Shown here in pieces: positions 11,615 to 62,600 of a DNA stretch of 64,000 nucleotides. The notes beneath the pieces were generated by a model that saw only the letters and a list, made by a program, of their open reading frames with translations, had not been told where the DNA came from and did not search any database. Within the stretch, counting starts at the first letter, position 1. Each line of letters begins with the position of its first letter. The stretch covers positions 434,001 to 498,000 of the forward strand of contig CP158635.1 of the NCBI GenBank assembly GCA_050273025.1. The letters are read 5' to 3'. Source of the stretch: Cenococcum geophilum (taxonomy: Eukaryota). The position numbers and the translations under genes were made by a program.

Positions 11615-11899
11615 TGTAACAGTGCAGTGTGAGAGAATTAAGTAAACGACTTGATTTTGAATGTAGCTCTAAGGTCTCTATATATACACAAGGTAGGTAG
11701 CAAAAGCTAACGACGACGTTAACGACAACGTTAACGACGATTCGTAACTGTTACCTAATTGCCACCAGGTCGATATTGCCACTCAGTCAGTAATAGGTAA
11801 TGAATAGGTAATAGAAATAAGTAGTAAGACATACGATGGCAAGATACAGGGTGGTGAGTTATAAGGTAGTATCTAACATAGTACCTATAGTCGGTTACA
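11615..11899 (-). repeat. 3' LTR of the Copia
   Basis: Direct repeat of 21691-21975 with 9 substitutions; adjacent CAACCCCCT is the minus-strand PPT. Confidence 0.97.
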
Positions 11900-17847: not shown

Positions 17848-17849
17848 TT

Positions 17850-19620: not shown

Positions 19621-19689
19621 AGACCTAGTCCCTCTTAAAGACCCCCTACCTAATTTCTGGATTAAGGTAAAAGCCCCCTTAGAATATTT

Positions 19690-21690: not shown

Positions 21691-21975
21691 TGTAACAGTG
21701 CAGTGTGGGAGAATTGAGTAAACGACTTGATTTTGAATGTAGCTCTAAGGTCTCTATATATACACGAGGTAGGTAGCAAAAGCTGACGACGACGTTGACG
21801 ACAACGTTGACGACGATTCGTAACTGTTACCTAATTGCCACCAGGTCGATATTGCCACTCAGTCGGTGATAGGTAATGAATAGGTAATAGAAATAAGTAG
21901 TAAGACATACGATGGCAAGATACAGGGTGGTGAGTTATAAGGTAGTATCTAACATAGTACCTGTAGTCGGTTACA
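21691..21975 (-). repeat. 5' LTR of the Copia
   Basis: TG..CA repeat of 11615-11899, bordered by PBS (GGCTCATAAC on the + strand, 21681-21690). Confidence 0.97.
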
Positions 21976-22931
21976 TAAACTATTAGTTATATAATTTAGG
22001 TTAATAAATGCACTAGTAACGTTTTAAAAGAAAATTAATAGTGTATTAGGAGAATACCTTAATAAGTTTATTATAGTATACCTTAACAATATTATTATCT
22101 ACTTAATAACTAAGGAAGAGCATAAGGAACACGTTAAATAGGTCTTAAAAAGACTATAGGAAAAATAGATACTAGTAGCAATTAAGAAGTGCGAGTTCTT
22201 TATAAGGAAGACTAATTTTATAAGATTTATTATTAAACTAAGTCATATTAGTATAGACCTAAAGAAAATTAAAGCTATAGTAAGTTAGTAAGAACCGAAG
22301 AATATAACAAAGTTAAGGTTATTTTTAGGGTTTTGCAATTACTATAGGAGGTTTATAGCATAATAGTTAAAGAATATTAAACCGTTTACCAGGCTTATAA
22401 AGAAAGAGAAATTATAGGTATAGGGAAATAAATAAAAGAAGTTGTTTAAAGAACTTAAAGAGTTATTTAGCTAAAAGCTAATCCTTAAAATCTATTAACT
22501 AGGACTAGATATAATTGTAAAAATAAATATTAGACTATATACTAGGAGTATACTTACTATAGAAGTATAAAAACGTATAGCACCTAGTATTATATTATAG
22601 CAGAAAGATAACACCACTAAAGTTAAACTATAACGTCTATAACAAGGAGTTATTAGGTATAGTTACAGCACTTAAGGAATAAAGAGCATTCTTATAAGGC
22701 GTAAAGAAACTATTTATAGTTAAGATAGATTATAAGAACCTAATAGGGTTCCTAATAATAAAAGAACTTAATTATAAACAAGTTAGATAGGCAGAAATGC
22801 TTATAGAATACTATTTTAAGATTTAGTATATAAAAGGAACTAAGAATGCAAGGGCAGATATACTTAGTAGAAAAGCTAAACTATAGAACAATAAGAAGCT
22901 ATTAGGAGTAATACTACGTAAAAATAAGGAT
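21976..22931 (+). pseudogene. Gypsy-1 RT C-terminus and RNase H
   Basis: FRLINALVTF, YLNNII (YLDD, ~22079), FLGFCNYYRRFI, NYNVYNKELLGIV.ALKE, IDYKNL, NARADILSR. Confidence 0.9.
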
Positions 22932-27680: not shown

Positions 27681-30600
27681 TAAGTTACCTAAGGGGAACT
27701 TAGGAGAAGTAGTTACTAAACTACTTAGATTTATTTCCTTCTTAGTTAGAAAAAAATCCGTTCTTTTATTGCTAAGTTCCTATAACCCTTATTTTATAAG
27801 CTTTTACTCTTTTAAACGGACCTTTTTATAACCCTTTTTAAGACGGAGTAACTGTAAGGGCACGAAGAGACTTTAGGGTAGATTTAAAGGAATAATATAA
27901 ATTCTATCTAAATCTAAGGGTATAGCTCTTGTAGAGAATAAGACGTTGTGTAAAGAAGAGAAAGGAATAATAAGAGAATCTTATGAATAAATAGTTAGGG
28001 GTCTTAGTAGTTAATATATACGCACGTGCGCACGCGGTCTTTGATGGTATTTAGTAGAATTTAATTAATTTAGCAGAACTTAGCAGAAGTCAATTAAGCT
28101 AGCAGAATTTGGCAGAATTTAATTAAAGCGTCGGAATTTATCTGTTAAGTATTTTATTAAGACATTCCTGCTGTAACTAGGCTAGTCCCGTTATAGTACC
28201 CCCCCCTTAGGCTAAAGGTTTAAAATAATTTAATTTAATTAAGACTTATTACTTGTCGCATTTATATAGCTACGTTAGGTGGTGGTATAGAGTTTTGCCG
28301 TTTCTATCGTTAAATAGACTAATTAGGATTTTCCATCCCTGGGATAGAAAATCGCTATTAGCTTGGTTAAGGCGGTAAGCAGAACTAATATCTTTATAGT
28401 GGGTCTTAGTAAGGCGGATCTAACTAATTAGATAACTTTAACCGGCGGTTAAAGTTCCTTAATATCTTACGTGTCACGTAATCGTATTATAAACGTTATA
28501 ACGTCTTTTGAGTTCTTTTTAAGTTTTGTGTTTTTATGTTGGGTAGTAGTCATTTACCTTTATATTGTGTTTATTTAGCTAGAGTAGGCCGTAAAGGATG
28601 GTCCTTATAGAATTCTTTTACTAAGGAAGGCGTGTTAGCCTTAATCTGGTTATAGGTTTCCTAGGTTTATGTTTTATATCCTTTCCACTTAATAAGAAGT
28701 TTAAATTATTTAGATTATATTTTCCATTGTATGTCGTTAATTAAGTTAATAAAGTAAGAACTATTACTATTATTAACAATTACGGGAGGTGGCGGCGGAA
28801 TTTCGTAAGTTGTAGGGTTATCTTTTAAATGTTATAATAAGCTTACATAAAACGTCAGGTGTATTTTTATCTTAGTCGGCAGTTTAAGCTTATAGGCGTA
28901 TAGGCTTAGTTTTTTCTTAATTTAGTATGGGCCCGTAAACTTCTAGTTAAGTTTCTTTAAGGGCCGTTAAGTCTTTAGGTTTTGTATACTTAGGTAAACT
29001 ATATTACTTTCCTTAAAGTCCTATATAGGAGCTTGTCTTTTATTCACGTGCCATTCCTATACCGTTTAAGTATATATTAATTTACTTCGTAATAGTTCCG
29101 TTAACTACTTTATTTAATTAACGAAGTTGTATACGTTAATTAACTAAATCTGTTTAATTGTAGGTCCTATTATGTTGATTTTAGGTTATAATTTAAATTT
29201 AAGTTAAGGGTCTTATCCGTAGGTTGTGTAGAACGGTGTTACGCCTATTAATACGTTTATTATATTATTTGCAGTAAACTTAGCTAAAGGCAGCTATTTT
29301 TCCCAGTCGTCTTATAGGTAGGAGTAGTATATTTATAGGTATTGTTCTATAATCGTGTTTATAATTTTAGTTTAACTATTTATCTTTAGATAAAATGCAG
29401 TTAAGAGTTATATTTAAATACTTAATTATTTATATAGAGCTTGCCAGAAGTCTAAAATGAACTAGCTTCTATAATCGGATATTATTAAGTTAGGAAGTCT
29501 ATATAGCTTAAAGACATACTTAACAAAACATTCGGCTACTAATATTATGTTAATTAAGTCTATAGGGATTATATATTGCATTTTCGTAAGATAGTTAACG
29601 ACTACTATAATATTTATAAACCCATTACTACTAGGTAAGTCGACTATAAAGTCAATTAAGATGTCGCGCTATCTTTGCATCGGAATTAGTAGCGGTTAAA
29701 GTACTCCTTACTTCTTTATATAAGAGGTCTTTCCACGTACGTATATCCTGTATGCTTAAACGTATTTTCGTATATAGTTGTGTATTATAGGCTAGTAGTA
29801 TGCTCGTTAAACAATCTTATAAGTCTTTATATAGCCAGGATACCCTACTATAGGGAAGTTGTGTATAAATTCAAGTATCTTAAATCGTAAGGGTTCGGAA
29901 TTTAGAACTACTATCTTCTATTAATAATATAATCGATCGTTTCGAATTTCGCATTCAGCAAATATAATATCCTTATACTGTCGTTTTCCTATTTAAATTG
30001 CTTTTATTATATTTATTATCTATATATTATTCTTATATTTATATTCCATTAGCTTATTAATTTCCATTTCCTATTTATTAACTTCTGATTTATTTCTGTC
30101 GAGTTTTATATCTAGGAATATAGGACGTAGTTTTTTGAAATGTTCAGGGGGCAATAAGATCCGTAATTAATTTGTAATCCGTTTGTCTAAAGTATTTACA
30201 GGTAAATCCTATAATTATTATATTAATGCGTTAGGCTTCTAATTGAGTTTACCCGGTTAGTATGTAATCTTAAAGTTAAATTATAAGAGATATTTAGCCT
30301 AACAAATTTGGCGCTATGTTAATTGTTTTATAGTTATAAAATACTATAGGTTCTTATAGTCCGTTAGCACATATATTAAGAATAACAATCCTTTAAGTTT
30401 AGGATGCTATTATTTAAAGCATCTAATGATTATAAGCAGTTCCTTATTATATATCTTGTAGTTTAATTTAGCAGGGGCGAGTTTTTAGGAGAGAAAGGCT
30501 ACTGGATGTAGCTCGCCGTTCTTATTATATTGTAACAACACTCCCCCTAGCGCATAATTAGATGAGTTCGTTTTAATAATATATTTAAGGTTAGGGTTAA

Positions 30601-32655
30601 AGTAGGTGAGAATTAGAGCAGTTATAAAACGATATTTTAGTTTATTAAAAGCTTATTTGTATTTAGTAGTCCATTTAAATTTTACTTTTTTTTTTATTAA
30701 GTTTACTAATAGCTAAACGATTTTCGAGAAGTAATTAATAAATTAATAATAGAAATTTGTAAATCCTAGAAATCCTTAAATGTCTTATACGCTACCAGGA
30801 CTCTCCTAGTTTATAATTGTAGCAACTTTTTTAGGGTCCATTTTAATTCTGTTATGGGATATAATTAAGCCTAAGTACGTAACTTTGGACGCGTAAAACT
30901 TGTATTTTTTAATATCGCATTATAAGCCCATATTTTGTAGGTGTTTAAGGACTATTTTAATGTATTTCCGATGTTTAGAAAGTAAGGATAAGTAGATTAA
31001 GATATTATTAATATACGCGGTAATAAATATATTAAGGAATTCACGAAGCGTATCGTTAACATATTGCTGAAATATACTAGGACCGTTTTTTACGCTAAAT
31101 GGCATTACTAGGTATTTAAAGAGTCCCTATTATATATAAAAAGCTATATACTTCTTATCTCCTTTATATATACGGATTTTGTTAAAGGTAGTAACTATAT
31201 TAAGCTTTGTAAAGTACCGTGCCTTTGCTAAATAGTTAAGTGTCTCTTAAATTAGGGGAATTGGATATTAGTTTTAAATTATAATTGTGTTTAGAGCTTA
31301 ATAATTAATATAGAATCTTAAGCCTCCTTTTAGCTTTTTAATAAATAGTATGGGTAAAGTAAATAGAGATTAACTAGGGTAAATAAATCCTTTTTCTAGA
31401 TGTTCGTTAAGGTATTGTTATATTATAAGTAGTTCTTCTTATAATATACCATATAGCGGACCGAACTTTAGTATTATGCTAGGCTTAAGTTCTATCTTAA
31501 AATCGTACTTATCTTAGTGCGGGGCTAGTTAGTCTGTAAATTGTTTTTTAAATTTATTAATTAGATTATAGTACTCTTTAGGTATAAGAGGTTAAGGGTT
31601 AATATATTGCTTTGGTTCTAGCGCTTTCTTAATGTCTTCTATTATTATAGTGAAGATTTTATAGTCTTGTTTTCTTGCTAATAAAATAAAGGGCGTGGCT
31701 TATATTATACGAATTTTAAGAGGTTTTAACGAAACATCTTCGCATTCTTTACCATAATTGGTAGTTATGGCTTTATTATATTAGTTTAAAGTTTATAGTA
31801 AGGGCAATTTATATTATGTTAAATTTAAATAGTTATATGTATATTTATAGGGCGAGTGGTATTTTAAGTAATAACTTTGGCAGTAGGTTATACGGAACTT
31901 TAGTATTTCTTTAACCCAGCTAATTAAAGGGTTGTATTGTTTTAGCCATCCGTATCTAAGTATTACTTTATAATACTTTAAGGGAGTTATAAATAGGGAA
32001 ATGTATTTAAGGTGTTCGCCTATTTATAATTTCATAAGAGCGTAGTACGTCAGTTTGCTATATATTAAGGGTTTGCCGTTAAAGCCTTATAGGCCTTAGG
32101 GCTTATTAAGTTTCTTTAAATTTAGGTATTAGGTTTTTGCGTAGTTTATATTAATAAAGCCTATACTAGTGGCTCCGCTATTTATAAGGATTTATACTTC
32201 CTTCCATTTTCTAAGTATTTAAATTTCGCTAAGTACATTAAGGGAGTCGTGTTATATATTAGCGCTAGAAGAGCCTATATACTTATACTTTTCCACTTTT
32301 TGTTTTAAGGCGCGACTTAGCCCTAGGATAATTTGTTTTCTAATTTAACTAAAAGCAAGGTGCTTTATAGCGTCTAAGTATAATTTATAGAATAAGTGTG
32401 AGTTAAGGAGCGAGTATAATTTAAAGACCGGGAGGAACTACAGCGGACTTTTTTAAAAGGGTAAGTTCGGTAATTCCTTTAGATATATCCTTTTTTACTA
32501 TATCTAAAGCATTCTCTATTTATAGCTTAGGTTCTTTATTTATTGGTTTTTAAGGGTGTATAGGATTAGGTAGCATTGAGATCTATAGGGTCATATATAG
32601 GGCTTTTAGGTCTTAGAGAAGGATCGCGCTTTAGAGTATATACTGGTTTTATAGA

Positions 32656-35600
32656 TATCGGGAATGAGGCAAGTTGCCGTCGCATGAAGCATATTGCCGT
32701 CACGTGTCGACGTGGCCCTAGCGTGGTGAGGAACCTTAAGTTCCTCACCCCTTTCCTCATTCCTATTAATAAGAATTAACTAACATTACTATAACCCTAC
32801 TTGAGTAGTCGTTATTGGTGAGTCACCCTATATTTCTAATACTAATTAGTAGTTAAATACACAGTCAACCATAAAGCAGCTAGGTTTTTAAACAAAAGAG
32901 ACAGTCTTATATAGGGGTGCTATATGCGCTTATATAGAATAGATCCTAACAATACTATACTACCTTAGACTTACGGAAAACTAGTAATAGAAGTGTTATT
33001 AAGTACTAGGAGATACTAAGTTATATCTATTATATAGAACAACCACGTTTACAAAGATTTGGTTAAGTACTTTAGGTTAGAAGTATCACTAAACCTATAG
33101 TCCTAAAATTAACGTCCGAAACGCGTCAAACAACTATATATATAAAGATTTGGTCAAGTACTTTAGGTTAAAAGTGTTACTAAACCTATAGTCCCAAAGT
33201 TAATATCCGAAACGCGTTAACAACATCTTAATTGCCTACCTTTTGACAGCAAACCTATGAAATTCTATAAAGCCAAAAACCCTACCTACCTTTAACGTAC
33301 GATACCCCGTCGATTTTATACCTACTATGGCATTAACCTACCTAAAGAAGTATAAGAAAAGCATTAACCCGGAGATATAGGATATAGATATTAACCCTAT
33401 AAATGCTAAGGAACAGGACCTGAACGGATTCTTAGTATACCGCATGGTATACTATATAGATAGTAAATATAATAATACTGAGCTATGGTGTTATATAAAG
33501 GAGGACTTTATTAAATAAATAAAGGAAATATAGGCTCTTGCAAAGAAGGACGTTATATAAGACTTCTATAACTTCCTTTAAAAAAATAGAGTATTTGTCC
33601 CTATGGATAGGGGTGCTATTAAAGACAATATCTAGGAGCAAATTATTAACGTAAAAGAAGAGCACGAATAGACTCTATAAGAGGTTAAGCACTAACTACG
33701 TACTAAGAGGAAGCTTAACTTATAATAGAATCCAAATAATACGCTAATAGAGACGCGCTCTAATTTCATTACTCTAGGCATAAGTTCTTATATTCCACAT
33801 CTATTACTTCTACCTCTATCTCCAGCTCCCTAGGATCTACCAATTTAACCAGCAATATTAACTACTACCCCTTAAGAGCAAGCGCAAGATCCCCTTGCTT
33901 CGCGATTTAACAACCTTCAAACTCTACTATAGAAAGATTAGGTACCACGCCGTATTCCACTAAGCCCTATATCTCTACTACAGCCTACAAAGCAATCCCC
34001 ACCTTAATCTCTAATGCAATTTTAATGTGGTCTAACACTACTTAGAGGCACCTTAAAAATGCTTATAGAGCTTACGAAGCTCTATGCGGACCAGGAGAAG
34101 AAGTTTAGCGGGGAACTGTATAATATCCTTAATTCGAAGCTGCGTATCTTCTATAACTATTATTAAAAGGTTGGACTAGAACCTAACCGATATTATAACA
34201 CCTATTCCGTTATACTTAAGGGCCGCGCTAGTACCTTCTATTATAATCATTTAGCAGAAAAAGGATATAATTTCAACCGAATAATATATGAGATAAGATG
34301 CTACTTTAAAACAAAAGAGAATAAGCAGCAATATATATTAGAGTGGAGAGAGACTACCTTTCTAAGAATTATTGCTACGAACCTAGGTGTCTCTTGGCTT
34401 AATTATCTTTAAAAGCTCTTTAATTAATTTTAAATAATTTAGTATAGTTTATCCGAATTATATTAAGAGGACCTTAGCCTATATAATTAAGTTATTAGCG
34501 TATACTGAGGTATTAAAAAATGCAATCTTGCTTTCTTTAACCCTATAAGTACTTATAAAGGAGTATATACTTAATTAAGATCCTCTATTAGCACCGCTCT
34601 ACGCTCTTAAAAAGTATAGCAATTTAACGCCCAACTTTAACCTACTTTAATTGACCTAGCTGACCAATATAATTACAACTAGACTAATTAAATATATAGT
34701 AGACGTAATAGGGGATATAGTAAAGGGTATAATTAACGTCAACTATAAGGCAATTATAGAGGTCCTTGTGGAGGTTTACTTTAGAGTAATTATTAAAAAA
34801 AGTGCTACGTTTATGAGAAGCCAAATTACTAGTTAACTAGACACCCTCTTAATAGACAAAAGGAGGCATATAATAGGTTTCGCTAGAGCGTATAAAATAT
34901 TAGAAACCGAGAGGTTACTATAGCCTACTTTTAAAACTTTCTAGTTTAATATAAAGGCAAAGAAGATCTTAAGGGTAAGGTTAATAAGGCCAAACAGCTC
35001 CTTATAGATATAAAAATTAAGGACTACTCTCCTAACTAATACTTCACTAAGTATGGTAAGGTAAATGGTATATAAACCGTTGCTATCCTTAATAACTAAT
35101 CTATACTCTATTCTATTATAAAGTTAGATATCTTTAATAAGCTAAAGGAAAGTTCCGCATTCTCCTTTAATAATAGATACTCGGCGAACGTCTTCTATGG
35201 CATTATACTAGATACTAAAGCTATAGGAGTATCTATAGTAGGAGAGCCTTAAGTTCGAGCTCTTTAGTAGCTTAATAGCTCTATTTAAATTAACCAATCA
35301 ACAGCAGGCTAATATACAATTCGCTTTAGCAAGGGTACTATAATCTCTCTTAGCATAATTAAGGTCCAAACCCTATTAGGATATATTACTTTCCACATTA
35401 TCCTCATAAATACCCCGTTTCTATTCTACATCTAAAATATAGACAAATTAGGTGTTAAGCTTAATAACCTTAAGAATATGCTTATCTAGGGAGATAATTA
35501 GGTGCCCGTTATACGTAAATAGGGTCACCCTTAGTTGCTCCTTTAACAGCTAGAAAGGAGCGTTGCTTAAAGCTACCTAACTAAGTTAGAGTTACGTTAA

Positions 35601-38600
35601 CTATACCGTTATTTTAGCCACCTATCTATTTACTAATTACTTAGGGTCCTTTAGCAAGCAGGTCATAAAGTTAAGGTTAAGGTAATTAAATATCTTATAA
35701 AGTACTGCCACTACTACTAAATGAACCAGAAGTCCCCTAGCCGATTTAAGTTTACTCTTAAAAACAACTATAACTTTAACTTCTACATTATTATAGATAT
35801 TATATATCTTAGCGGTAAGCCAGTACTCCAAGTTATTAACTTCTTAACCTCCTTCTAAGCCGCACGCTTTTTAAAAGATATATTAGCTAGGAACGCATAG
35901 GATACTCTTTAATTATATTGGATTGATATCTACCTAAAACCCCCTAATTAAATTGTTTATAACGTAGGAAAGAACTTCTTATCTATAGAGTTTTAATAAC
36001 AGGTAAAGGCAATAACAATTAAGGTTAAGGAAGTCCCCGTTAAGGTATATAATAGTATTAGAAAAGTAAAATAATATTATATACCATTATGCCGCGCATA
36101 TAAGATCATTTCTTTAAAACTAAAGGGTACTAGCGAAGAGCTTATCCTATAGATGGCTATTAAGGCTATTAATAATACCGCTAGCCTAAATAGGCTCGTA
36201 CCTACATTACTAGTCTTTAGCGCCTACCCTTAAATAACTAACGATTCTCTACTATCTCCCTCCATTGCGCAATAAGCTAAGGCTATTCGTAAAGTAATAA
36301 AGGAGATACGACGTCTTTATGCTACACGCTAGGTTAATAACGTACTAGGAATAAGAAATAGCCTAAATACCTTAACTACGCTTAATCTACCACTCTAATT
36401 GAAGGTACGCGTATAGCGTAAAAAGGGAGGATAGTTAGGCCTATATAAACTTATTATAATTAATAGTTAAACTTACACTTTTTAAATGCCCCATAGACCC
36501 ACTTAATTCCGCTTAACCGTTATTAAGCCCTATTATAGGGATAATAGCTTTAAGCCTTTACAGGATGCCCTAAAGGATACCCTAGAGGAGAACCACGATT
36601 AATATACTTCAAAAGGCGAAGGCGATTCTAATACAATTATAGTAGACATACCGCAACTATGACGCGGTAGAGGTCGCCTAAAGGGATCATAAAATTGCCA
36701 ACATCTTATTAATTTTGAAGAGCAATTTGTCACCGCTATTGAGAATAGAGATAAACTATTAATGGCCTTTATAATAGCTAAAGAGAAGGCTAACTTCGAA
36801 CTTGCAAAATAGCTCTAAAAGGAAGGCCATATTATAACTCTAGGAGCTCCTTTCTAAGCATCTGACAAGCAGGAGATTAACGGTTTTATTATAAGAGGAG
36901 TCTTTAAATTCAAAAAATATAACCCTACTAAGTTTAATAGAGTCCGTATATTTAAGTTAAGAATAGTTAATAAAATTAAAGGTAAAGCTACTAATACCCC
37001 ATTTAAGAAGTTAAGGCTAGTCATTTAAGGTTATAATGATAATAATAAGGAAGTAATCCTTATATAATCCCCTATAATTCAATAAGCTAGTTAATAAGTT
37101 ATTATTACGCTAGCTCCCTCCTTAATGAAGAATGGGATGGCGGTTTACCTATAAGATATTACTTAGGCCTACACCTAATTAGAGACGCGCCTTTAGCGCT
37201 TAATACTAACATACCTTCTAGAGCAAATTCGCCACTAATATCCCAAGGATACAATTATGGTTGTACTTAAGCCATTATATAGAATCGCAGAGGTAGGAAT
37301 TTATTAGTGGGCTACCTACAGCAAGCACTATAAGGAGAAGCTTTTAATAACTACTTCTATATTTAATCCCTACTTCCTTATTATAACTATAGGAACTCTA
37401 TTTAGAATTGTCGGCATATAAACGGACGATATAATCATCTTAGGAGACGACTAATTCTTAGCTCTTAAAGAAGATAAGCTAGTAAAGATAAACCTTATAG
37501 CAAAGCTAAAGGAAAAACTTAACTTAGCAATACTATTACTCTTTAATAAATATATCCTCTCCCTAAACAAGGGCTCTATTGCTCTATACCAGAAGGGTTA
37601 AGGTAAGAAGATTGATGTTATTAACGTTAATTCTCTAAAGCAAGGATACGTAGAATAATATACTTGTGGAGCTTATATAGCTTCTATCTATTAACCTAAG
37701 GCTTCCTTTAATCTCTCTGTTGCCGCTTAACACTAGGAACCAACTAAAAATAACATTCTTACCCTAAATAAGCGTCTTTTTTAGTAAATAAACCATTTTA
37801 ATAGGGGACTACTCTACGTGCCTATTAACCTTCCTACCGCTAAGCTCTTTGTATTCGTTAATAGATTGTTTATAAATAATAAAGATTTTAGCTCCTAGCT
37901 AGGATATAAAATTATTATTATAAACGAATCTACCGGAGAGAATGACTTTATAATCTACGGTAACCTTATCTATTAGAGCTTAACTAAGAGTAAGTACGTC
38001 ACTTAAAGCGTTCTAGCATTAAAGATATATAGAATAGTTAGCGGAGTTGATATGGCAATTGCAATTGGAACTACCCTTAAGATGATTATAGACCGGCTCG
38101 AACTTCCTGTTATCCCTATAATTGTATATACCGACTTATATTCCCTCTATAAGTGTTTAGTTAAGCTTAGTACTATAAAGAAGAAGCGTCTTATAATTGA
38201 TATTATAGCACTTCAGTAGTCCTATAAGTGTTAAGAACTCTTTAAAATCTAATAGATTAATAGCTAAGATAACCTAGTAGATGCGATGATAAAGGCAAAC
38301 CTAAATAAGGCACTAGAGACGTTTGTTAATATAAATACTCTATATATATAAGTTGAAGGTTAGGTTAAGAGGGAAATTTAGAAAAGTTAAGATTTTATAA
38401 AACTTTAACCGCCGGTTAAAGTTGTCTAATTAATTAGATCCTTACTAAGAGCGCCGCGCCTAATTAATTTAGGTGGTGGTATAGACTTCTGCCAACTAAT
38501 TAGGATTTTCCATACTTGGCATAGAAAATCGCTATTAGCTTACTTACTACTAGCGTCTTAGCGGCCCACCCGTCTTTACATTATCTACTAAATTCTGCCA

Positions 38601-38916
38601 ACTGCCGTATTATTATATATCGTCTGGTTTTGTTATATATTGTCTGGTTTTGTTATATATTATCTGGTATTATTGTATACTGTCTGTTTGTATATATATA
38701 TATAGTAACCATAAAAAGAAGAGTTGCTAGTGTCGGGAATAAGGCAAGTTGCCGTCGTATGAAGCATATTGCCGTCACGTGTTAACGTGGCCCTAGTGTG
38801 GTGAGGAACCTTAAGTTCCTTACCCCTTTCCTTATTCCTATTAATAAGAATCAACCAACATCACTGTAACCCTACTCGAGTAGTCGTTATTAGTAAGTCA
38901 CCCTGTGTTTCCAACA
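32656..38916 (+). mobile_element. GalEa-type Copia LTR retrotransposon (6261 bp) in the Gypsy-2 gag
   Basis: 186 bp LTRs 32656-32841 and 38731-38916 (TGTCGG..CCAACA), perfect TSD ATAGA (32651-55, 38917-21); PR GIILDTKA.GVS (~35199), IN LYRYFSHLS..YCHYY, RT FKKLRLVI*GYND, DIT*AYT*, KPLYRI.E, GI*TDD (~37413), RH FVNRLF.NNKDFSS*LG and NLVDAM.K. Clade assigned from recalled motifs. Confidence 0.9.
33053..33224 (+). repeat. Tandem ~82 bp duplication in the GalEa 5' leader
   Basis: AAAGATTTGGT(T/C)AAGTACTTTAGG...CCGAAACGCGT at 33053-33134 and 33144-33224. Confidence 0.9.
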
Positions 38917-54689: not shown

Positions 54690-57600
54690 GGCTATTGTCT
54701 AGCTAATAAAGAATACTTTAATAAGATAAAGAATACCCGTAAAAGTAAGCTTAAGCCTAGAGAGCTTATGCTAGTATGGGATGTAAAGAAGGTAAAGGAT
54801 ATGTTGCGATGGCAAAAGCTGCAGCTAAAATAGCAGGGCCCCCTCCGGATTAAAAGGTCATTAGAAAAAGGGTTCTATAAAATTAAGAACCTTAATAGCA
54901 CTAAAATAGAAGGCACCCTATATGGGAATTGGTTGAAACGGTTTTATATATAAGATCCCAAGGGGATTAGACCAGAAGACCGTATGAATAAAAGTAACCA
55001 TAATATAGAAGAAGTCTTTGCAGAAGAAGAAGCACCTAAAGAGGAGGCTATGGTAGCGTCTCTTTTTTCTAACTACACTACGATTTTACCGCGTCTTAAG
55101 GATCACACAACCCTACTAAAAAGGCAGTCTTCTATAAAGATTCTTTTATAAATAGGCTATTACTTAGGACACCTATCACTATAAGTAGCAACTTATTTGC
55201 TTTTTTCTCTCTACCTCTATAATAAATACGTAAAGCAACTATAAGGATTAGAGTCTTTTACTGCACTCCTACCTTATCCCACTAGCACGAGGAATTAGGA
55301 AAAGAGTTTAGCTCTTTAAAGCTGGTTTTAAATCCTCTATCTTAATAACTACTCTTATAAGGAATAACTATATATATAGTCTTCTTCCTTCTACCTTTAT
55401 TACCAATAACTATCTCTTATAAGTATTTTATATTTTTACGTTCTATAATTTTTGAATTAATATTTTTGTTTCCTTTTAAGTTAAGAGAAGAGCTATTTTA
55501 CTTTAAGAAGTCTTAGTTAAGTATACTAGAAGTTAAAGTTAGGCATTATCTAAGTCTTGTTTATTCTTTTAAAAAATTGTTAATATTAAAGTTATTATTA
55601 TATAAATGTCTTAGTAAGGAAAATCTAACTAATTAGACAACTTTAACCGGCGGTCGAAGTTCCTTAATATCTTAAGATTTTATGTGACGACTATTTTAAT
55701 TTACCTTTTTAGTAAATACTATAAGATCTTTATTTTGACTTCCTATTATCCTGTTATCCTATTATCCTATTACCCTATCTCGTTTAATTGTACGCGCCCG
55801 TTTGCCTTTCTTTACATTAAGAAGCACTATTGTTACCCTTCTCTTAAATTGCCTGTTGTATACGCGGAATTTCACTGTAAAAATGCCTAGAACTATGGAA
55901 CTCCGCTTAAAAGGAAGGCCGCCGCCTCTGCCTCCTACGCCTCCGCCTTCTACTATCTGGTTGATGGCCCTTATATACTAAGGAAAGGCGTAGATAATAG
56001 AGGTTATTCTTAAAGCTGCCTAAAGCCACCCGGTTAATTAGCGCGTAAATATCTATTATAGTTTAATATAGGTTATTTTAAACTAGGAGCATAATATGGT
56101 TAAGGCTGCAAGAAATGCTATAATTAAGATTAAAAAGGATGGAGAGCTTAAAGGAAACTTGGAAAGTAAAGAGTGGGAAAATACCTTTATAGATATTAGG
56201 AAGCTTTTTAAGATTACTTATAAGATTAATAAGATTAAGATAGTACGGGATATAGTTAAGAAGGAGTAGGGAGAGGAACTTTTAGAAGGTTTCTGTAAGC
56301 TCTTTTATATATATTACGCACTAAAAAGCATTTATATCCTTATTAATTAAGTTAAAAAGAGCGAGATCGCTAGAGAGAATGTGTTAAAGATAGTTAATAA
56401 TATAATGCTAAACCGCCTAGAACTCTTAAAGGCTGGGATCTTAAGGACTCTATGCCTGACACCCTCGGATTTCCTTAATATTTATAAATTCGGACTAGAA
56501 GTTAATAAGGAGCTAGTTAGGAAATAGAGGCTCGCCTGTTATTTAAGCTAGGGCTATAAGCTTTTAGTGCTAGCCTTAACCGTTAAAGCTAGAGGAGAGG
56601 GATTTATACTAGAGCCAGTTACTCTGGGACCTCTATTGGTACCTTTTAAAGAGGTTAAAGGCTTAAACGTAAAGATGCTGTGTAGTATGTTTCTATTTGG
56701 AGGTAAGGTTCCTAAAGCTAATGGAGAGAACTCTAAATCTGATAAATCTACGTCTTTGGAGGATGTCTTTGTTGCTAGCTCCTTGCAGAAACGTAAGGCT
56801 AAAAAAGCTTCTAAGAAATCTCTTAGAAAGAAGCTAAAAATAGGACCTATGGAACCTTTAGCTTCTGGTAAAGCTAATAGACGAAAGGGAAAAGTAGCTA
56901 TAATTGCTGAAGCTGATGGAGAGGTAATTATTAGGAAACTATGGCCAAAATAAAAAATAAAAAGCTTATACTATTTTAAAACGCTAGTTAAATTAATAAA
57001 GGCTCTTAATTTAAAGAAAGAACTAGAAGGCGGTGTCTCTTCCGTCTTATAATAGTTTATTATAGCCTGGCAAGGAAATGAGATAGAAGTCCGCGCGCTA
57101 TGCCGGATATATCTTTAGAAAATGGTAGGATTGCTAGGACTAGATGCTAGTGCTTCCTTTATAAATTTATATTTGCGAATTTACTTAGTCTCTAAGAACT
57201 ATAATGCTATTAATATTCTCCGGACAGCCAAAAGCTCTTATTTTTGGTTTAAAAGGGATAGTTATCCTAAGTATACAAATGATGGTTTTAGGATTTACGC
57301 TTATTCTACTATACGACCTAGTAATTATTAAGTAGATTGTATAGGGTTAAGGAAGCTTATATTAGGCTTAAAAGGGGAAATAGAATAGGACTTGTTTGAA
57401 ATTCACTAGGCCGATTTATTTAAATGGTGGAAAGATGCTAAAATTCTAGATATTTTTAAAGAGGAGTTTAATATATATGCGCATTATTTGCGTAAGACCG
57501 CTAGAGAGGAAAATAGCGGTATCCTTTGGACTATGTGCTATTCTTTGCTATAGTAGGCAGTTCGGATAGATCTGGAGCACTACTGGCATACAGTGGCTTT

Positions 57601-59339
57601 ACGCGCTGATAGCGCTACTCGTTTTATTGCATATCTAAGCTATACGCTTTGGTTCCTTAGTAGCCATCTCCCTGAAAAGCGGAACTTGGAAATTGACCTT
57701 CTGCGAGTGCGTAAAGGAGGGCTAAATTCTGGAGAAAGCTGGCTTTGTTCTTGTGTCTCCTTAATTAATAAGGGGAGTTAGTCTTGCGTAGAGTTTCTAC
57801 CTAGTATGTATTAGTATATACCGGAATAGGTAGGCTTGCTTTAAGAACGTGGTGAACTTAATAGTAGAGGGCGTATTAAGAATATGGAAACTGCTTGGAC
57901 TAAAGCTAATGCTAAGAAGTTTAAGCTTAACTAGATGCCTATTACGTTAAGGACTAATAAAGTGCGGTTTATAAAAGCTACTATTATATAAGGAGCCTCT
58001 TAAGCAATATTAAGTTGCTTAATTATTATACTAGACTTAATCGCAATCCTACTAAATACTAAGAGATTGGAGATTCCTGGGCTTGAGAGCCAGCAGGCCG
58101 TTATATAGATGAATTTAGACGCTTTTCCCTTGGTTTTAAACCCTACTGGCGAACCTATTTCTAACGCTCCTCTATATAAGTTTCTGGCCTATATATAGCT
58201 GTAGGTAAAGAGCGCTGTTTTAAATGCTTTAGTTGGGAGACTTTTATGGGACGACCCTTGAGTAAGAAGAGAGCAACAGTTAATCTTGGATCCTTTATTA
58301 AATAATAAATATAAAGTATTTTGGGAAAGATATAGGACGCGTGTTGCTGAGGCTGTTTGTAAGAGCTTTGGAGAGCTAGAGGAATTTAAGCGGGAGGTAT
58401 TTAGGGTAAAGTCTTACTTTTTGGTAAAAGAATAAGGGCGTAAGCGTCCTGTAGATGACCTAGAATATCCTAAAGACTTGGTTTTAGATCTAGAATATGA
58501 ATATGACCCGGCTGGTATAACTTCTCGCGCTTTCCCGCTAACCGATTATAGTTCTGAAGGCTATTTTAAAGGCGAGGCTGGGGCTGTTATACCTTAGGGC
58601 GCTAGGATTGCTGTGCTAAACCTTGGTCCTGATATATTTAATAATAAGGTAGCGCCTATAGAAATTAACTGGGAGCTAAAGGATATAAGCAAGCTTAAAG
58701 AAGATGGCTTCCGAAATGCTGCTTCTGAATATTCGCCGGTATTTGTTAATGTTTTAGAGAATATTAATAAGCTAGTAGTATTATACTACCTAACGCCTTT
58801 ATTAATTTCAAAAAAGGGTACTACTTTAGAAGAACAGACGATTAATTCTAGTGTTTTTTAACCTCCTGCGTAGAAGATAATATAAGCGGAAATAAATGCT
58901 ATCTGTAAAAAGGTGTCTTTAAAACTCTAGGTTGGTATTATTGATACGTAGAATGATGTAAATGTAGAGCTTAAGGTGGAAGGCGTAGATGATATGGAAC
59001 AGAGGCGATAAATAGGGAAGGGGTATAGGTAGCTTTAGAGGAGTTAAAGGTATACTAGGTGTTAGGTTGTTTTTTTTTATCCTTAAGCGTTTCTTACCTA
59101 CTAAATAGGGTCTGTAAAGAAACGTTAGGGGATAATGTTTTAGGTGGGGGTAGTAATATAGTAGTGTGGAATGCTTCTTGGTTATTTTAGTTTATTTCTT
59201 ATTATATATAGGGGGCTTAGGGTTATATATATTACAGAAGCAACCTAGGCTTTAACCTTATCTTAAAAAAAATCCAACTTACCCTCTAGTTATTCTTCTA
59301 CCTTTCTGGCGTAACTTATCTAGTCCCATTCCCCTTATA
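54690..59339 (+). mobile_element. 3' half of a non-chromodomain Gypsy (copy 1): integrase tail, extra ORFs, PPT and putative 3' LTR
   Basis: LANKEYFNK..LKPRELMLVWD..KLQLK*QGPLRI..YKI.NLNST...GNWLKRF (integrase GPY/F tail, 54700-54945); AAACGTT..AATGTTT hairpin and GGTGGGGG PPT at 59120-59150; TGTGG at 59165 (LTR end ~59339 uncertain). Confidence 0.75.
55883..59011 (+). pseudogene. Extra ~1040-codon ORF of the Gypsy (copy 1) with a PhyH/2OG-Fe(II) dioxygenase-like C-terminal half
   Basis: ATG 55883 and ORF-track pieces 56567, 57122, 57593 and 58613 are all in one frame; interrupting stops are mostly RIP-type TAA/TAG. The family resemblance is inference. Confidence 0.75.
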
Positions 59340-59689: not shown

Positions 59690-62600
59690 ACACTTCTGTA
59701 GAATAAGGTAAAAATAATAGAAGAGTTAATTATTCTAAGAATGAAATAGTTTAAGTAATAAGAGATGAATAATAAAGAAGCTTAAGAGAGGATGCGCCGC
59801 TATCGTCTAGCCAATAGAGAATACCTGTAAGGGCAAGCTTGAGTCTGGGGGGCTTGTGCTAGTATAGGATGCAAAAAAGGCAAAAGATATATCGCGGTAG
59901 TAAAAGCTATAGCCAAAATAGCAGGGTCCCTTCCGGATTAAAATGGCATCAGAAAAAGGGTTCTATAAACTTAATGGTACTAAAATGAGAGGCAATCTAT
60001 ATGGGAATAGGTTAAAACGGTTCCTTATATAAGATCTTAAGGAAGTTAGACCAGAAGGCCATATAAATGAAAGCAACGTAATATAGAAGAGGTTCCCGCA
60101 GAAGAGAAGGCACCTAAGGAGGAGGCCGTAGCGTAGGCAGAGAAAAGGTAATCTCTAGGAAGAATTAGCCGAGTTCTCGTCTATAAAAGTCCTCCTGCCC
60201 TCTTATTTAAGCAACTTAATCGCCACTACTTATTAAAAGAGTTCCTTTAAGCTTCCTAAAAGACAAATAGCTAGTTTCCTACTATACCGGTATAGCGCCG
60301 TACTGCTCTATTAGTATAAGGATTGTATAAGCTAAGCTTAATTAAACCCTTCTAAGGAAAGAAAGTAGAAGGAAAAAAGTAAGAGAGAAAGCCTTTATAA
60401 ACGGTAATTAACTAAGATTATATTATAGTTATAGTTAATTCTACCTATCCTTTGTATATGTTTCTCCCTTCTAATTATATTATAATCTTATTACGTTTTA
60501 AGGATTATAGCTTTACTAAGAGACGGTCTTCTACAAAGATCCTTCTATAGGTAAGCCATTATTTAGGATACCTATTACTATAAGCAGCAACTCTTTCTCT
60601 GTCTTTTCTTTATCTCTATAACGAACGCATAAAGTAACTATAAGTAAGGCTTATCTAAGGAACACTCGGGACTATAATGGCTAGCACTCTTAAAGACTAA
60701 GAGTCTTCTACCGCACTCCTACCTTACTGCCATAAGCAATTAGGAAAAGAGTTTACTTCTTTAAAGCTGGTTCTAAATCCTTAGTCTTAATAACTGCTCT
60801 TATAGAGAATAACTTTATATATAGTCTTCTTCCTTTTATCCTCGTTACTAGTAACTATCTCTTATAAGTATTTTATATTTTTACGCTCTACAATTTTTAA
60901 TTTAGCATTTTTATTTCCTTTTAAGTTGAGAGAAGAGCTACTTACTTTAAGAAACCTTAGTTAAGCATATTGGAGGTTAAAGTTAATTTTTAGTACTAAC
61001 TAATGTTATTATCATAGAAAAGTCTTAGTAAGGAAAATCTAACTAATTAGACAACTTCGACCGCTGGTTAAAGTTCCTCGATATATTAATAATTTACGTA
61101 ATAGTCCTTTTTAATTCACCTTTTTCTAGAAAATATTATAAGGCCTTTATTTTAATTTCTTATTATCTTATCTTATTTAGTTATACGCGCCTGTTTACTT
61201 TTCTCTTACGTTAAGAAGACACTATTATAACTCTTATCTTAAAATACTACCTATACGCCTGTTGCGCACACAAAATATTACTATAAAAATGTCTGGAACT
61301 ATAGAACTCCGCTTAAAAGGAAAGCTGCTGCCTCTGCCTCCTATGCCTCTGCCTCCCGCGCCTCTACCTCCTACTATCTAGTTAATGGCCCTTGCATACT
61401 AAGGAAAGGCGCAAACAATAGAGGTCATCTTTAGGGCCGCCTAAAGCCACCTAGTTAATTAGCGCGTAAACATCTATTATAGTTTAATATAGGCTATTAT
61501 AAACCAGGAGCATAATATAGTTAAGGCTGTAAAAAATGCAATGGTTGAGATTGAGAAGGATAATAAGCTTAAGGGAAATTTGGGAAATAAAGATTAGGAA
61601 AACGCCTTTACGGACATCAGAAAGCTCTCTAAGATTACCCATAAAATTAATAAGATTAAGGCGGTGCGAAATACAATTAAGAAGGAGTAGGGAGAGGAAC
61701 TTTTAGAAGGTCCCTACAAGCTCTTCTATACGTATTACGCACTGAAAAGCATCCGTATCTTTATTAATTAGGTAAAAAGAAGTTAGATCTCCAGGAAAGA
61801 TACGTTAGAAATAATTAATAATGCAATACTAAGCCGCCTGGAACTCTTAAAGGCTAGGATCTTAAGGACCCTATACCCAACACCCTTAGACTTTCTTACC
61901 GCCTATAAATTTAGATCGGTAGTTAATAAGGAGTTAATTAAGAAATAGAAGCTTATTTATTATCTAAGCTAGGGCCATAAGCTTTTAGTACTAGCCTTAA
62001 CTGTTAAAACTGAAGAGGAATCTGCACTAGAGCCAGTTACTCTGGTGCCTCTACTATTACCTTTTAAGGAGGTTAAAGGCTTAAACATAAGAATACTGCG
62101 TAGCTCATTTCTGTTTAAAGGTAAGGTACCTAAAGCGTAAGGAGAAGACTCCGAATCTAATAAATCTACGTCTTTAGAGGATGACTTCGTTGCTGGCTCC
62201 CTATAGAAATGCAGGGCTGGAAAAGCTTCTAAGAAATCCCTAAGAAAGAAGCTAAAGATAGGACCTGCGGAACCTCTAGCTTCTAGTAGAGCTAATAGGC
62301 AGAAGGGAAAAGCAGCAATAATTACTAAAGGAGAGGTAATTATTAGGAAAGCACAGCTAAAGCGGAAAATGAAATGCTCGTATTATTCTAAAACGCTAGC
62401 TGAATTAATTAAGGCCCTTAATTCTAAGAAAGAGCTAGAAGATGGTATCTTTTCTATCTTATACTAATTTATTACGGCCTGGCAGGGAAATGGAACAGAA
62501 GTCCGCGCGTTATACCAGATACATCTTTAGAAAATGGTAGGATTATTAGGATTAGATGCCAGCGTTTCTTCTACTAATTTATATTTACAAATCTGCTTAG

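Follow-up and report, generated by a model that had tools for sequence, protein, structure and literature searches.

A palindromic non-coding cassette common to Gypsy, GalEa Copia and orphan-ORF element families of a filamentous ascomycete

A short palindromic cassette was identified in seven main families of elements whose flanks cannot be aligned with one another: five Gypsy families, one GalEa Copia family and one family with an orphan ORF of about 990 amino acids. Its description as a modular non-coding piece of the LTR retrotransposons of one RIP-affected filamentous ascomycete lineage is well supported, and we tentatively favour the reading that it is a DNA cassette of promoter or enhancer type, which these families have passed to one another as a portable unit. 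No published report of the cassette was found in the literature searched. As a rule, each family of LTR retrotransposons has non-coding control sequences of its own. The near identity across Gypsy and Copia of a 70-nt block and of a 47-nt hairpin points to repeated exchange between superfamilies or to a strong dependence on a common host factor, neither of which was found documented for fungi in the literature searched. The cassette provides a short and testable handle on the transcription or restraint of fungal retrotransposons, through its CCAAT boxes, its CCG-S-CGG palindrome and its bZIP-type box, as well as a marker for recombination between element families, and it may be linked to the antisense accessory genes of other fungal elements.

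Module copies and host elements in the window

The window, that is the whole stretch of 64,000 nt that was analysed, contains four copies of the module, at the positions given by the initial annotation. Copy 1 (the P1 block, 28404..28469) reads on the plus strand but lies in a minus-strand Gypsy, whose sense strand is the minus strand of the window. Copy 2 (38388..38450, minus strand) starts 37 nt past the stop codon of a Copia pol gene and about 280 nt before the 3' LTR. Copy 3 (55609..55674, plus strand) is located about 210-270 nt upstream of the start of an orphan ORF, and copy 4 (61023..61085, plus strand) belongs to a second copy of the repeated unit that holds copy 3. Searching the whole window with a degenerate 24-nt core and up to 3 mismatches returned exactly 4 matches, corresponding to the four module copies, compared with 0 matches in 100 dinucleotide-preserving shuffles (mean 0.00). 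The stem described previously was recovered in a slightly longer form, an 11+11-nt palindrome with one central base, and its intact left and right arms are indeed those of copy 4 and copy 3, respectively. Copies 3 and 4 are part of one repeated unit (55067-58600 aligned with 60469-64000, 77% identity), so that the window offers three independent contexts of the module, not four.

The similarity of copies 1 and 2 extends beyond the 65 nt, a second palindrome, P2, being present at both. At copy 1, P2 occupies 28317..28362, with 20-nt arms that correspond to CCAAT boxes once de-mutated and a 7-nt loop; at copy 2 it occupies 38496..38539, and its orientation with respect to the P1 block is the reverse of that seen at copy 1. 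Copy 1 is also adjoined by a 15-nt palindrome, TTACGTG-T/A-CACGTAA (28467..28481), the version of the TTACGTAA box found at this place.

The Gypsy that carries copy 1 (27855-40155, minus strand) is delimited by an LTR pair, a 344-nt direct repeat of 90% identity with the 3' LTR at 27855..28198 (minus strand) and the 5' LTR at 39812-40155. Its polypurine tract was read from the sequence at 28199..28210 (minus strand), immediately before the 3' LTR. The degenerate gag-pol (28586..32188, minus strand) was recognised with Pfam, stops being treated as X, and with tblastn using Gypsy polyproteins. The Pfam domains detected in pol were RVT_1, RNase H, integrase and SH3_Tf2-1, and tblastn placed the pol end at about 28586. 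As copy 1 lies in this minus-strand element, the module is situated in a Gypsy 3' region and is oriented as in Copia, antisense to the element.

A GalEa-type Copia (32656..38916, plus strand) is nested in the Gypsy. It has LTRs at 32656-32841 and 38731-38916, a 5-bp target duplication (ATAGA), the 9-mer CTAATTAGT immediately 3' of the 5' LTR (32842-32850) and a pol stop codon at 38349-38351. Pfam gave no match on the Copia region with stops as X; the identity of the element was taken from its homologues, which carry PF07727, and tblastn agrees. Its family features were compared with the GalEa description in the available portion of PMC5445492. In both window elements, Gypsy and Copia, the polypurine tract and the LTR could be read directly.

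Downstream of copy 3 lies ORFx, a degenerate orphan ORF of 992 codons, or about 990 amino acids (55883..58858, plus strand), with intact relatives that are 65-75% identical. ORFx and its intact relatives matched no Pfam family and gave no usable match in the protein atlas. The initial annotation had assigned the module to three unrelated retrotransposon families. The Gypsy and the Copia stand; the third family has the orphan ORF and no pol domain that could be detected with Pfam or tblastn, and a remnant resembling an integrase C-terminus was seen in it by eye only. No tRNA or tRNA-like sequence was called in the window, and the idea of a block that imitates a tRNA or pairs with one was therefore abandoned.

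Distribution among element families

A wider search was performed with a mutation-tolerant 36-nt pattern on metagenome contigs that stem from this fungus or a close one. At least 122 loci were recovered in addition to those of the window, whereas the same pattern gave 0 matches in a collection of prokaryote genomes and 0 in viral contigs. A profile search recovered 3 further diverged module copies. The copy set analysed below comprises 126 sequences, 4 from the window and 122 among the metagenome matches listed, and all of them are RIP-mutated dead copies. Clustering these 126 copies on their pol-side flanks resulted, among the matches listed, in clusters of 36, 20, 17, 16, 11, 10 and 7 copies plus small ones. 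According to tblastn, families R1, R2, R3, R5 and R6 are Gypsy and R4 is Copia; family R7 bears ORFx and includes window copies 3 and 4.

Pairwise blastn comparisons between families yielded alignments confined to about -21..+48/79 and, separately, to P2. This confinement bears out the proposal of a discrete non-coding module common to Gypsy and Copia, a module that has been exchanged between families. The accompanying statement that the flanks are otherwise unrelated holds insofar as the flanks are unalignable; it has to be corrected for P2 and the TTACGTAA-type box, which accompany the module in many families. A swap of entire LTRs between Copia and Gypsy was considered and rejected, R6-O and R4-D sharing only about 100 nt. 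Among the matches listed, every copy (the 126 and the 3 diverged ones) lies inside an element family. Several loci extend to host-like genes beyond the element end, and still no module copy was detected in genic or anonymous DNA.

Anatomy of the cassette

The P1 block is about 70 nt long and its inferred un-mutated sequence is GTCTTGGCAAGG..ATCTGGCCAAT(C/T)AGAC-AACTTCGACCG-S-CGGTCGAAGTT-CCTTGACATCTTA. It is composed, in this order, of a 9-nt palindrome, a CCAAT box in a small inverted repeat and a perfect palindrome of 23 nt centred on CCG-S-CGG. At the centre of the latter, 51 of the 126 copies have G and 73 have C, and both bases occur within every larger family. A palindrome of the TTACGTAA type is found about 17 nt beyond the block. 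P2, present in many families, is a 47-nt palindrome with 20-nt arms that consist of inverted CCAAT boxes followed by GATTTTCCAT.

Once de-mutated, the P1 block contains one CCAAT box and P2 contains two. CCAAT is found in 3/3 diverged copies at the place where the copies selected by the pattern have CTAAT, and it is kept in 27 of 118 P2 arms. The RNA reads of a less mutated relative have AATCAGG and CTATTGGC (ATTGGC) in P2, in 28/28 reads each, and RNA reads of run X21 align exactly over 28317-28363, with C at 28324 and G at 28360. The optimal site of the CCAAT complex is RRCCAATSRG. The motif of P1 and P2 matches the CCAAT-box element both in the pentamer and in the consensus flanks, which makes it a candidate site. 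TTACGTAA is presumably a bZIP site.

The pieces of the cassette (P1, the TTACGTAA-type box and P2) keep their sequence but not their spacing and relative orientation. TTAYRTAA is located at +53/54 in 29/36 copies of R1, 15/16 of R4, 4/10 of R6 and 5/7 of R7, and at -30 in 11/20 copies of R2. P2 starts at -61 to -116. Its orientation with respect to P1 is one way in R1 and R3 and the opposite in R2-H, R4 and R5, and some subfamilies are devoid of it. The constancy of the 36-nt core is in part a matter of ascertainment, because the core was selected by pattern; that of the TATA box and of other A/T-only motifs proves little, since they are immune to RIP mutation.

Position relative to pol, polypurine tract and LTR

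In five families (R1, R2, R4, R5 and R6) the block is located 33-549 nt past the pol end. It runs antisense to the element and precedes both the polypurine tract and the 3' LTR. An antisense pol C-terminus was detected 33-549 nt from the core in 59 of the 122 metagenome copies among the matches listed (18 in R1, 14 in R4, 11 in R2, 11 in R5 and 5 in R6). The position is fixed within each family, the distance between module and pol being 41-44 nt in 14/14 Copia copies. On the other side, homology among copies stops about 250-590 nt beyond the core, which corresponds to the element 3' end, and the spacer between pol and 3' LTR measures about 150-400 nt. In Copia subfamily D, a run of purines adjoins the module; its reading as the polypurine tract is doubtful, P2 and about 400 nt more of the element lying beyond it.

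The two remaining families are organised otherwise. In R3, a Gypsy family, the cassette is in the middle of a terminal direct repeat of about 850 nt (in locus L074, -1591..-742 aligned with -433..+416, 86% identity) and the element ends at about +430. A TATA box, (T/C)ATATAAA(G/A)(G/A), is found about 120 nt downstream of the core end and in the same orientation in 17/17 copies. This location in the U3 of the LTR with a TATA box downstream, in sense orientation, is specific to R3 and was not observed in R1, R2, R4, R5 or R6. A real ORF has its ATG about 260 nt downstream of the cassette in R7. Both R3 and R7 carry the whole unit in inverted form. The module had been described as always downstream of pol, which is correct for 5 of the 7 main families but neither for R3, where it belongs to the terminal repeat, nor for R7, where it lies upstream of ORFx.

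RNA reads, folding and antisense frames

From about 12% of an RNA run of the relative, 171 reads were retrieved, mostly less than 90% alike. About 30 strand-biased reads (28-32 versus 1-3) cross P2, and they correspond to the element sense strand provided that the library is of the usual dUTP kind, in which case the cassette is present in the sense RNA of the relative. Reads in the opposite direction over the pol 3' end reach a depth of only about 0.6x. No clustered read starts or ends were detected near the cassette among the 171 reads, which as a sample of about 12% of the run cannot show the absence of a transcript. In the DNA run, the summed contig depth was about 2.5-4.5x higher in the cassette bin than in its neighbours, a value that does not measure copy number. 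Among 18 copies, no reading frame on the antisense strand stands out beside the cassette, and no zinc-cluster motif was found in any frame of the window and loci.

A self-cleaving or otherwise known RNA had also been suggested, and the Rfam searches speak against it, having no match at the module: Rfam 15, ribozymes included, gave 0 matches in the window at gathering score and, in 20 loci at E<=1, one weak match (E 0.2) outside the P1 block. Folding 5 copies on both strands (10 folds) led to unremarkable z values of -2.7 to +0.9. For one copy, both the MFE and the centroid structure consist of a closing stem and two hairpins. Watson-Crick pairing in P1 is complete (11/11 pairs) in 38 of the 126 copies, with 10 pairs in 50, 9 in 26 and 8 in 9 copies, 3 window copies being mis-indexed in this count. 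Double changes in P1 gave phi values of -0.07 to 0.58 for true partners against a mean of 0.08 (range -0.12 to 0.53) for non-partners, a comparison of low power because RIP is symmetric on palindromes and all copies are dead.

A proposed role as promoter- or enhancer-type module

Among the functions listed by the initial annotation, that of a promoter fits best, the module lying in the terminal repeat before a TATA box in R3 and upstream of an ORF in R7. P1, the TTACGTAA-type box and P2 have moved between Gypsy, Copia and ORFx families that cannot otherwise be aligned. We propose that they would form a compact module that works at the DNA level, either as an RNA polymerase II promoter or by upstream activation. 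It would present putative sites for dimeric host factors, namely the CCAAT-binding complex, a bZIP factor and, on P1, a zinc-cluster-like or other dimer; both its binding of proteins and its promoter activity are predicted from sequence. R3 would use it from within U3 of its terminal repeat, with the TATA box downstream, and R7, the family of window copies 3 and 4, ahead of its accessory ORF. In the five families that include window copies 1 and 2, it might act from the short spacer between pol and polypurine tract, in antisense, either by giving rise to an antisense transcript or as an orientation-free enhancer.

The free orientation of P2 and of the whole unit, together with the free spacing, is as expected of protein sites. 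In 5/7 families the cassette is outside the LTR and is never brought before the 5' LTR by reverse transcription, so that it is not an ordinary upstream element of the genomic promoter there. What argues against a promoter is that conservation covers the 70-nt block without a break, instead of being limited to motifs set apart by free spacers; a structured RNA or a recent transfer would account for this just as well as clustered protein sites. The cassette in the relative's sense RNA is also what an RNA-level function predicts.

Such an RNA-level function is the main rival reading, if on the unlikely side: P1 and P2 would form hairpins in the 3' UTR of the sense RNA and bind a common host factor, the P1 block perhaps folding into a three-way junction, with a role in export, stability, translation, packaging or dimerisation. 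Every LTR-bearing family does place the cassette in the 3' UTR of its genomic RNA, the strand-biased P2 reads (about 30) would be sense with a dUTP library, P1 is almost perfectly paired across copies, and the closing stem with two hairpins is both MFE and centroid of one copy. Perfect palindromes are identical on both strands and inverted families would therefore show the same hairpins, but the non-palindromic parts (the CCAAT segment and the edges) are equally kept in the inverted R3 and R7, where the RNA is their complement, and P2 occurs in both orientations with variable spacing. Moreover, the fold energies of extant copies are ordinary, no Rfam family matches, and double changes at partners are not above those at non-partners, symmetric RIP hot spots being in any case able to mimic covariation. 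We consider it unlikely that the cassette is a functionless by-product. On that reading, palindromes would make the reverse transcriptase pause and change templates, a patch would thereby enter nested or co-packaged RNAs of other families close to the 3' end, from which minus-strand synthesis sets out, and it would then simply stay there. Against this, the content of the cassette consists of recognisable promoter-type motifs and is not arbitrary, the block is kept in seven families at a constant place within each, one of them having it in the terminal repeat upstream of a TATA box and another before an ORF, and a double template switch without homology between particles of Gypsy and Copia is expected to be very rare. 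The sharp edges of the block, devoid of shared flanks, are nevertheless what template switching would leave, and elements are nested here, the Copia being inserted in the Gypsy with a 5-bp target duplication. The P1 centre, with its mixture of G and C in every larger family, is also four-gamete-incompatible with 18/24 informative transversion sites in R2, a family in which the majority of sites are in conflict with 4-39% of the remaining ones, and it conflicts with 15/17 sites in R1 and 5/11 in R3. These conflicts and the inversion of P2 between families fit a hairpin-mediated flip-flop; in R5, however, the centre base is compatible with the subfamily structure (0/42 conflicts), so flipping is not frequent everywhere.

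A bolder combination, which we regard as quite unlikely, would have the Gypsy, Copia and ORFx elements of a given fungus arrive independently at, or exchange, a single set of long palindromes peculiar to the species, all of them relying on a common dimeric DNA- or RNA-binding factor of the host or encoded by an element; in most families this set would serve as an antisense promoter or roadblock at the junction of pol and LTR, controlling copy number or shielding the elements from genome defence, and hairpin flips in reverse transcription would be its route of transfer. The tiny element targeting retrotransposon 3' regions that had been envisaged, here a non-autonomous MITE-like or hairpin mobile element with a preference for the pol-LTR spacer, is improbable and finds no support in the analysis. 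No target-site duplication varies between families, the repeated TCTTA being inside the conserved block in all of them, and the bases outside the block differ between families and are not duplicated. The pol distance is fixed per family, all 126 copies and the 3 diverged ones among the matches listed are in element families and none elsewhere, and no transposase candidate is known for such a unit. The discrete edges, the short inverted repeat CAAGG / CCTTG within the block ends and the presence or absence of P2 in R1, where subfamily A has about 125 extra nt holding P2 compared with subfamily E, are the features that recall a mobile unit. Pairing between the 5' and 3' ends of the RNA is encountered with Ty1 CYC5/CYC3 and with the bipartite Ty3 primer site, and by analogy the CTAATTAG-type palindromes of the cassette could pair with the GalEa conserved hairpin site and so hold the two ends of the RNA close to each other, in aid of strand transfer or self-priming, which we judge highly improbable. 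The window Copia does have CTAATTAGT right after its 5' LTR (32842-32850), as reported for GalEa in the available portion of PMC5445492, and the element sense strand of the block contains the same 9-mer in a mutated form. This likeness is largely RIP-made, the less mutated 5' site being CTAATCAGT and the less mutated block CCAATTAG (CTAATTGG on the sense strand). In addition, the Gypsy with the block has another sequence after its 5' LTR (TTACGTTACA...), the cassette is inverted in two families, and eight self-complementary bases are weak evidence.

Comparison with known systems

Cis-acting elements are found between the last gene and the 3' LTR of several systems: simple retroviruses have constitutive transport or direct-repeat elements there that work via host factors, and the Ty1 CYC3 and Ty3 3' primer-site segments take part in 5'-3' pairing. 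The cassette would be reminiscent of them all as a putative structured or complementary RNA before the 3' LTR, but they have no sequence or Rfam similarity to it. To our knowledge, these retroviral and Ty elements are orientation-dependent and restricted to one element family each, none being shared across superfamilies.

The brtn gene is an antisense accessory gene between pol and 3' LTR in Boty-like Gypsy elements (Zhao et al. 2011, as cited in the available text of PMC8365987), and, on this description, the pol-3' LTR spacer and the antisense direction are where the cassette points in five families. In contrast to brtn, no antisense ORF or zinc-cluster motif was found here and the spacer is only about 150-400 nt. 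We know of no description of the brtn promoter.

The RM boxes of Sireviruses, which are plant Ty1/copia elements, are CGG-CCG palindromes in U3 and 5' of env that have been read as transcriptional activators (Bousios et al. 2010, PMC2829016, in the part of the article available). Like the cassette, they are conserved palindromes with a CGG/CCG core in non-coding LTR retrotransposon DNA; they are described there as lying upstream of the LTR TATA and, in some Sireviruses, also just past pol and 5' of the extra gene, and as associated with inverted repeats beside the polypurine tract (PMC2829016). According to the same partial text, RM boxes are 11-17 nt long and form high-copy arrays in one plant genus-level Copia lineage (PMC2829016), whereas the cassette is a single 70-nt composite per element plus a 47-nt hairpin, is common to superfamilies (Gypsy, Copia, ORFx) in one fungus, and is mostly outside the LTR and antisense. 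At most the cassette works like RM boxes, and it is not a member of their class, its hosts being fungal Gypsy and GalEa Copia and no array being present.

GalEa's conserved hairpin site (CHS), described in 2017, is a palindromic, hairpin-forming non-coding motif of fungal Copia whose extended form is conserved between distant families within species (PMC5445492, available portion). In that portion it is located directly after the 5' LTR, where it replaces the tRNA primer-binding site, it is reported only for GalEa Copia, and its 9-mer CHSeq1 is palindromic with the last LTR base (PMC5445492). The cassette differs from the CHS by its location at the 3' side, by its occurrence also in Gypsy and other elements and by its un-mutated sequence. 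It resembles the CHS as a palindromic non-coding motif, and the window Copia carries both, its true CHS being at 32842-32850.

Module copies in the window and their host elements

A palindromic module had been noted in the initial annotation at 28404-28469, 38388-38450, 55609-55674 and 61023-61085 (copies 1 to 4), and all four copies were confirmed. A 24-nt degenerate core, searched with at most 3 mismatches, matched the window in exactly these four places, and 0 of 100 dinucleotide-preserving shuffles of the window contained a match. Copies 3 and 4 belong to a single repeated unit (55067-58600 and 60469-64000, 77% identity), so that the independent contexts in the window number three. The window is crowded with dead, mutated repeats; its GC content is 27-50%, and neither strand has 150 consecutive codons free of stops in any frame. 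Differences between copies are nearly all C-to-T and G-to-A, the changes produced by the repeat mutation RIP.

For these degenerate elements, Pfam and tblastn were run with stops read as X. Both detected a Gypsy pol at 28586-32188 on the minus strand, and the Gypsy LTRs were located as direct repeats at 27855-28198 and 39812-40155 (minus). A GalEa-type Copia (LTRs at 32656-32841 and 38731-38916, plus strand) is cleanly nested inside it, with a 5-bp target duplication ATAGA at 32651-32655 and 38917-38921; the interrupted Gypsy continues past the Copia up to its 5' LTR at 39812-40155. The Copia shows the features by which Donnart et al. (PMC5445492) characterise fungal GalEa elements: its LTRs are of the TGT..CA type, the target duplication is 5 bp long, a tRNA primer site is missing, and CTAATTAGT (32842-32850) abuts the 5' LTR. 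In one metagenome locus (L001, ~1741-1752) a less mutated copy of this 5' site reads CTAATCAGT, and the CTAATTAGT form may therefore be a RIP product of CTGATCAGT. Two tandem 91-nt units of 85% identity were also observed in the Copia leader/gag region (33038-33219).

Copy 1 lies 117 nt past the point where the Gypsy pol alignment stops and is followed, in Gypsy sense, by a second, 47-nt palindrome (P2), a polypurine tract (28210-28199) and the 3' LTR. Copy 2 starts 37 nt past the Copia pol stop and is followed by P2, with the 3' LTR ~280 nt further. The module, as the initial annotation wrote it, is antisense to the host element in both. In the third family, which carries copies 3 and 4, no pol domain was detected by Pfam or tblastn; an integrase-C-terminus-like remnant was recognised by eye. 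Its degenerate ORF of 992 codons, ORFx (55883-58858, and 61300-64000 in the second unit), starts ~260 nt downstream of the start of the core. ORFx has no Pfam family and no protein-atlas match; its intact relatives, P0184-P0188, are unannotated proteins of 658-1114 aa with 65-75% identity. ORFx is an orphan protein family borne by a repeated element, downstream of the integrase-like remnant.

Census and position across element families

Metagenome contigs were scanned with a 36-nt pattern in which each C or G was also allowed as its RIP product. At least 122 loci matched, nearly all on long contigs and from few sources, and the pattern had 0 matches in the prokaryote genome collection and in viral contigs. 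The copy set analysed comprised 126 copies, namely 122 metagenome loci among the matches listed and the 4 of the window. A profile search of all available DNA added just 3 further, diverged copies, none of them new in the window. Every copy found (126 and the 3 diverged) is mutated. The constancy of the core is partly due to ascertainment, since the 36-nt pattern fixes it.

Clustering of the pol-side flanks of the 126 listed copies yielded seven main families of 36, 20, 17, 16, 11, 10 and 7 copies; R1, R2, R3, R5 and R6 are Gypsy, R4 is Copia and R7 is the ORFx element. A search with homologous Gypsy and Copia polyproteins placed the C-terminal end of pol antisense to the core, at a distance of 33-549 nt, in 59 of the 122 metagenome copies listed. 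The median distance was 147 nt in R1 (18 copies), 122 nt in R2 (11 copies), 77 nt in R5 (11 copies), 161 nt in R6 (5 copies) and 41 nt (range 41-44) in the Copia family R4 (14 copies). Most copies without an antisense pol end have 300-nt flanks only, are cut short, or come from R3, R7 or R8. On the far side of the core from pol, homology between copies stops ~250-590 nt away, which marks the 3' end of the element.

R3 is inverted: pol shares the strand of the core and stops 820-1000 nt upstream of it; the element itself extends to about +430 relative to the core. At the R3 locus L074, a direct repeat of 854 nt (86% identity), which contains the cassette, surrounds a 309-nt internal remnant; the cassette is therefore central within the terminal repeat. 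A TATA box, (T/C)ATATAAA(G/A)(G/A), is found ~120 nt past the end of the core in all 17 R3 copies. The small family R8 (L003, L005) has no pol match; downstream of the cassette and on its strand, L003 contains a 189-aa stop-free frame (+824..+1391) without Pfam match, and R8 may be a second instance of the cassette ahead of a non-pol ORF.

Anatomy of the cassette

Between families, blastn alignments were limited to about -21..+48 (maximum +79), plus P2 on its own; LTRs and coding flanks gave none. The aligned P1 block extends from about -21 to +50, and its centre is an 11+11-nt palindrome about a single base, G in 51 and C in 73 of the 126 copies, with both forms within every larger family. 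This difference is a transversion, beyond the reach of RIP. The centre conflicts with 18/24 informative transversion sites in R2, 15/17 in R1, 5/11 in R3 and 0/42 in R5; for comparison, the majority of R2 sites each conflict with 4-39% of the remaining ones. Recurrent flipping of the centre is thus partially supported. In 107 of the 123 copies with correct indexing, the TCGA of each arm is now TTAA. The CpGs of P1 differ greatly in how often they are mutated, those of the CCG-S-CGG centre being altered in just ~20-40% of copies, which points either to former selection on the centre or to a mutation process that prefers certain contexts.

The 3 diverged copies have CCAAT where the pattern-selected copies have CTAAT, which makes the 'CTAACTAATTAG hairpin' a mutated GGCCAAT box. 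The arms of P2 read AGCCAAT(A/C)(G/A)(C/G)GATTTTCCAT, with CCAAT retained in 27 of 118 arms. With a strict expression, P2 was recovered from 59 copies, where its start lies between -61 and -116; it is oriented one way in R1 and R3, the opposite way in R2-H, R4 and R5, and is missing in some subfamilies. Between the R1 subfamilies A and E (L018 vs L011), ~125 nt containing P2, at about -20 to -140 from the core, are present in one and missing in the other while the other flanks are collinear, so P2 acts as a separate insertion/deletion block. A TTAYRTAA box stands at +53/54 in R1 (29/36), R4 (15/16), R6 (4/10) and R7 (5/7), and at -30 in R2 (11/20).

The motif TTCTGCC(A/G)(A/G) occurs 4-5 times in the U3 of the Gypsy LTR (28060-28130, minus strand), near P2 in the Copia 3' region (38480-38600), in LTRs belonging to other families (L011 and L075) and in RNA reads adjoining P2; it may be a further shared control motif.

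Transcription

RNA evidence came from one raw-read run of related label, of which ~12% was read, with 171 reads aligned. About 30 of these align across P2 alone (28317-28363), with flanks from a less mutated R1-type 3' region, and have C at position 28324 and G at position 28360, so that the sequences there are AATCAGG and ATTGGC. Their strand bias is strong (28-32 vs 1-3), towards the sense strand of the element if the library is of the usual type. No clustered read starts or ends were seen among the 171 reads from this ~12% of one run. The cassette is transcribed in the sense RNA of a relative.

For X22 and X23, two runs whose RNA origin is a guess, contigs extend over the Copia LTR, the leader and gag region (32768-34423) and the 3' LTR, but barely over pol (34424-38149); if the runs are truly RNA, short gag-region transcripts would outnumber full-length ones.

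Possible roles of the cassette

The cassette, made of the P1 block, the TTACGTAA box and optionally P2, is modular, has been exchanged among Gypsy, Copia and the ORFx element of one ascomycete lineage, and always lies in a non-coding region at or beside the 3' repeat. As to mechanism, we tentatively favour a promoter or enhancer module that would act at the DNA level and be built of putative sites for dimeric factors. The motif content, the free orientation and spacing, the U3 placement 5' of the TATA box in R3 and the placement ahead of an ORF in R7 argue for it. Its weak point is the five families in which the cassette is found outside the LTR, in antisense orientation; for these, a promoter role would follow by analogy with antisense accessory genes in the equivalent spacer of other fungal Gypsy elements. 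One such gene, brtn, was reportedly described by Zhao in 2011 in the spacer between pol and the 3' LTR of Boty-like Gypsy elements. No antisense ORF stood out beside the cassette in the 18 copies examined, and none of the frames of the window or the loci contained a zinc-cluster motif. In print, the closest parallel is with plant Sireviruses, whose palindromic CGG-CCG boxes lie both in U3 and just past pol, like the cassette (PMC2829016).

A hairpin element acting in the RNA of the 3' UTR is a doubtful alternative. Sense RNA across the cassette is expected under this and the promoter/enhancer reading alike. A known RNA was not found: no Rfam family matched the module in the window or at the loci, and no tRNA was called in the window. 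Folding of 5 module copies, each on both strands, was not exceptional, and in these RIP-mutated copies the associations at the stem partners of P1 did not exceed background. That the cassette has no function and arose as a side effect of template switching at palindromes seems unlikely. The suggestion of a tiny element targeting retrotransposon 3' regions fared worse, and a mini-transposon is very improbable: no variable target duplication was found, and neither the copies listed nor the 3 diverged ones include any outside the element families. A partnership with the GalEa 5' hairpin site is scarcely credible, the likeness between the two being mostly a product of RIP.

Full-text searches on LTR retrotransposon palindromes, the motif string and brtn/Boty turned up three published systems, namely the brtn gene, the Sirevirus boxes and the GalEa 5' hairpin site, but no report of a 3' cassette common to Gypsy and Copia elements of a fungus.

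Other elements in the window

The youngest LTR pair in the window (291 nt, 97% identical) belongs to a ~10.4-kb element at 11612-21978, which interrupts a plus-strand Gypsy (11222-11616 / 21971-22880) within its reverse-transcriptase region and has no match to the Gypsy and Copia reference proteins used. A remnant of a hAT dimerisation domain (25450-25636, plus strand, E 9e-6) lies inside a plus-strand Gypsy, and a DUF6589 domain (53019-54137, plus strand, E 1e-31) just upstream of the first ORFx unit; both stretches are remnants of DNA-transposon-type genes.
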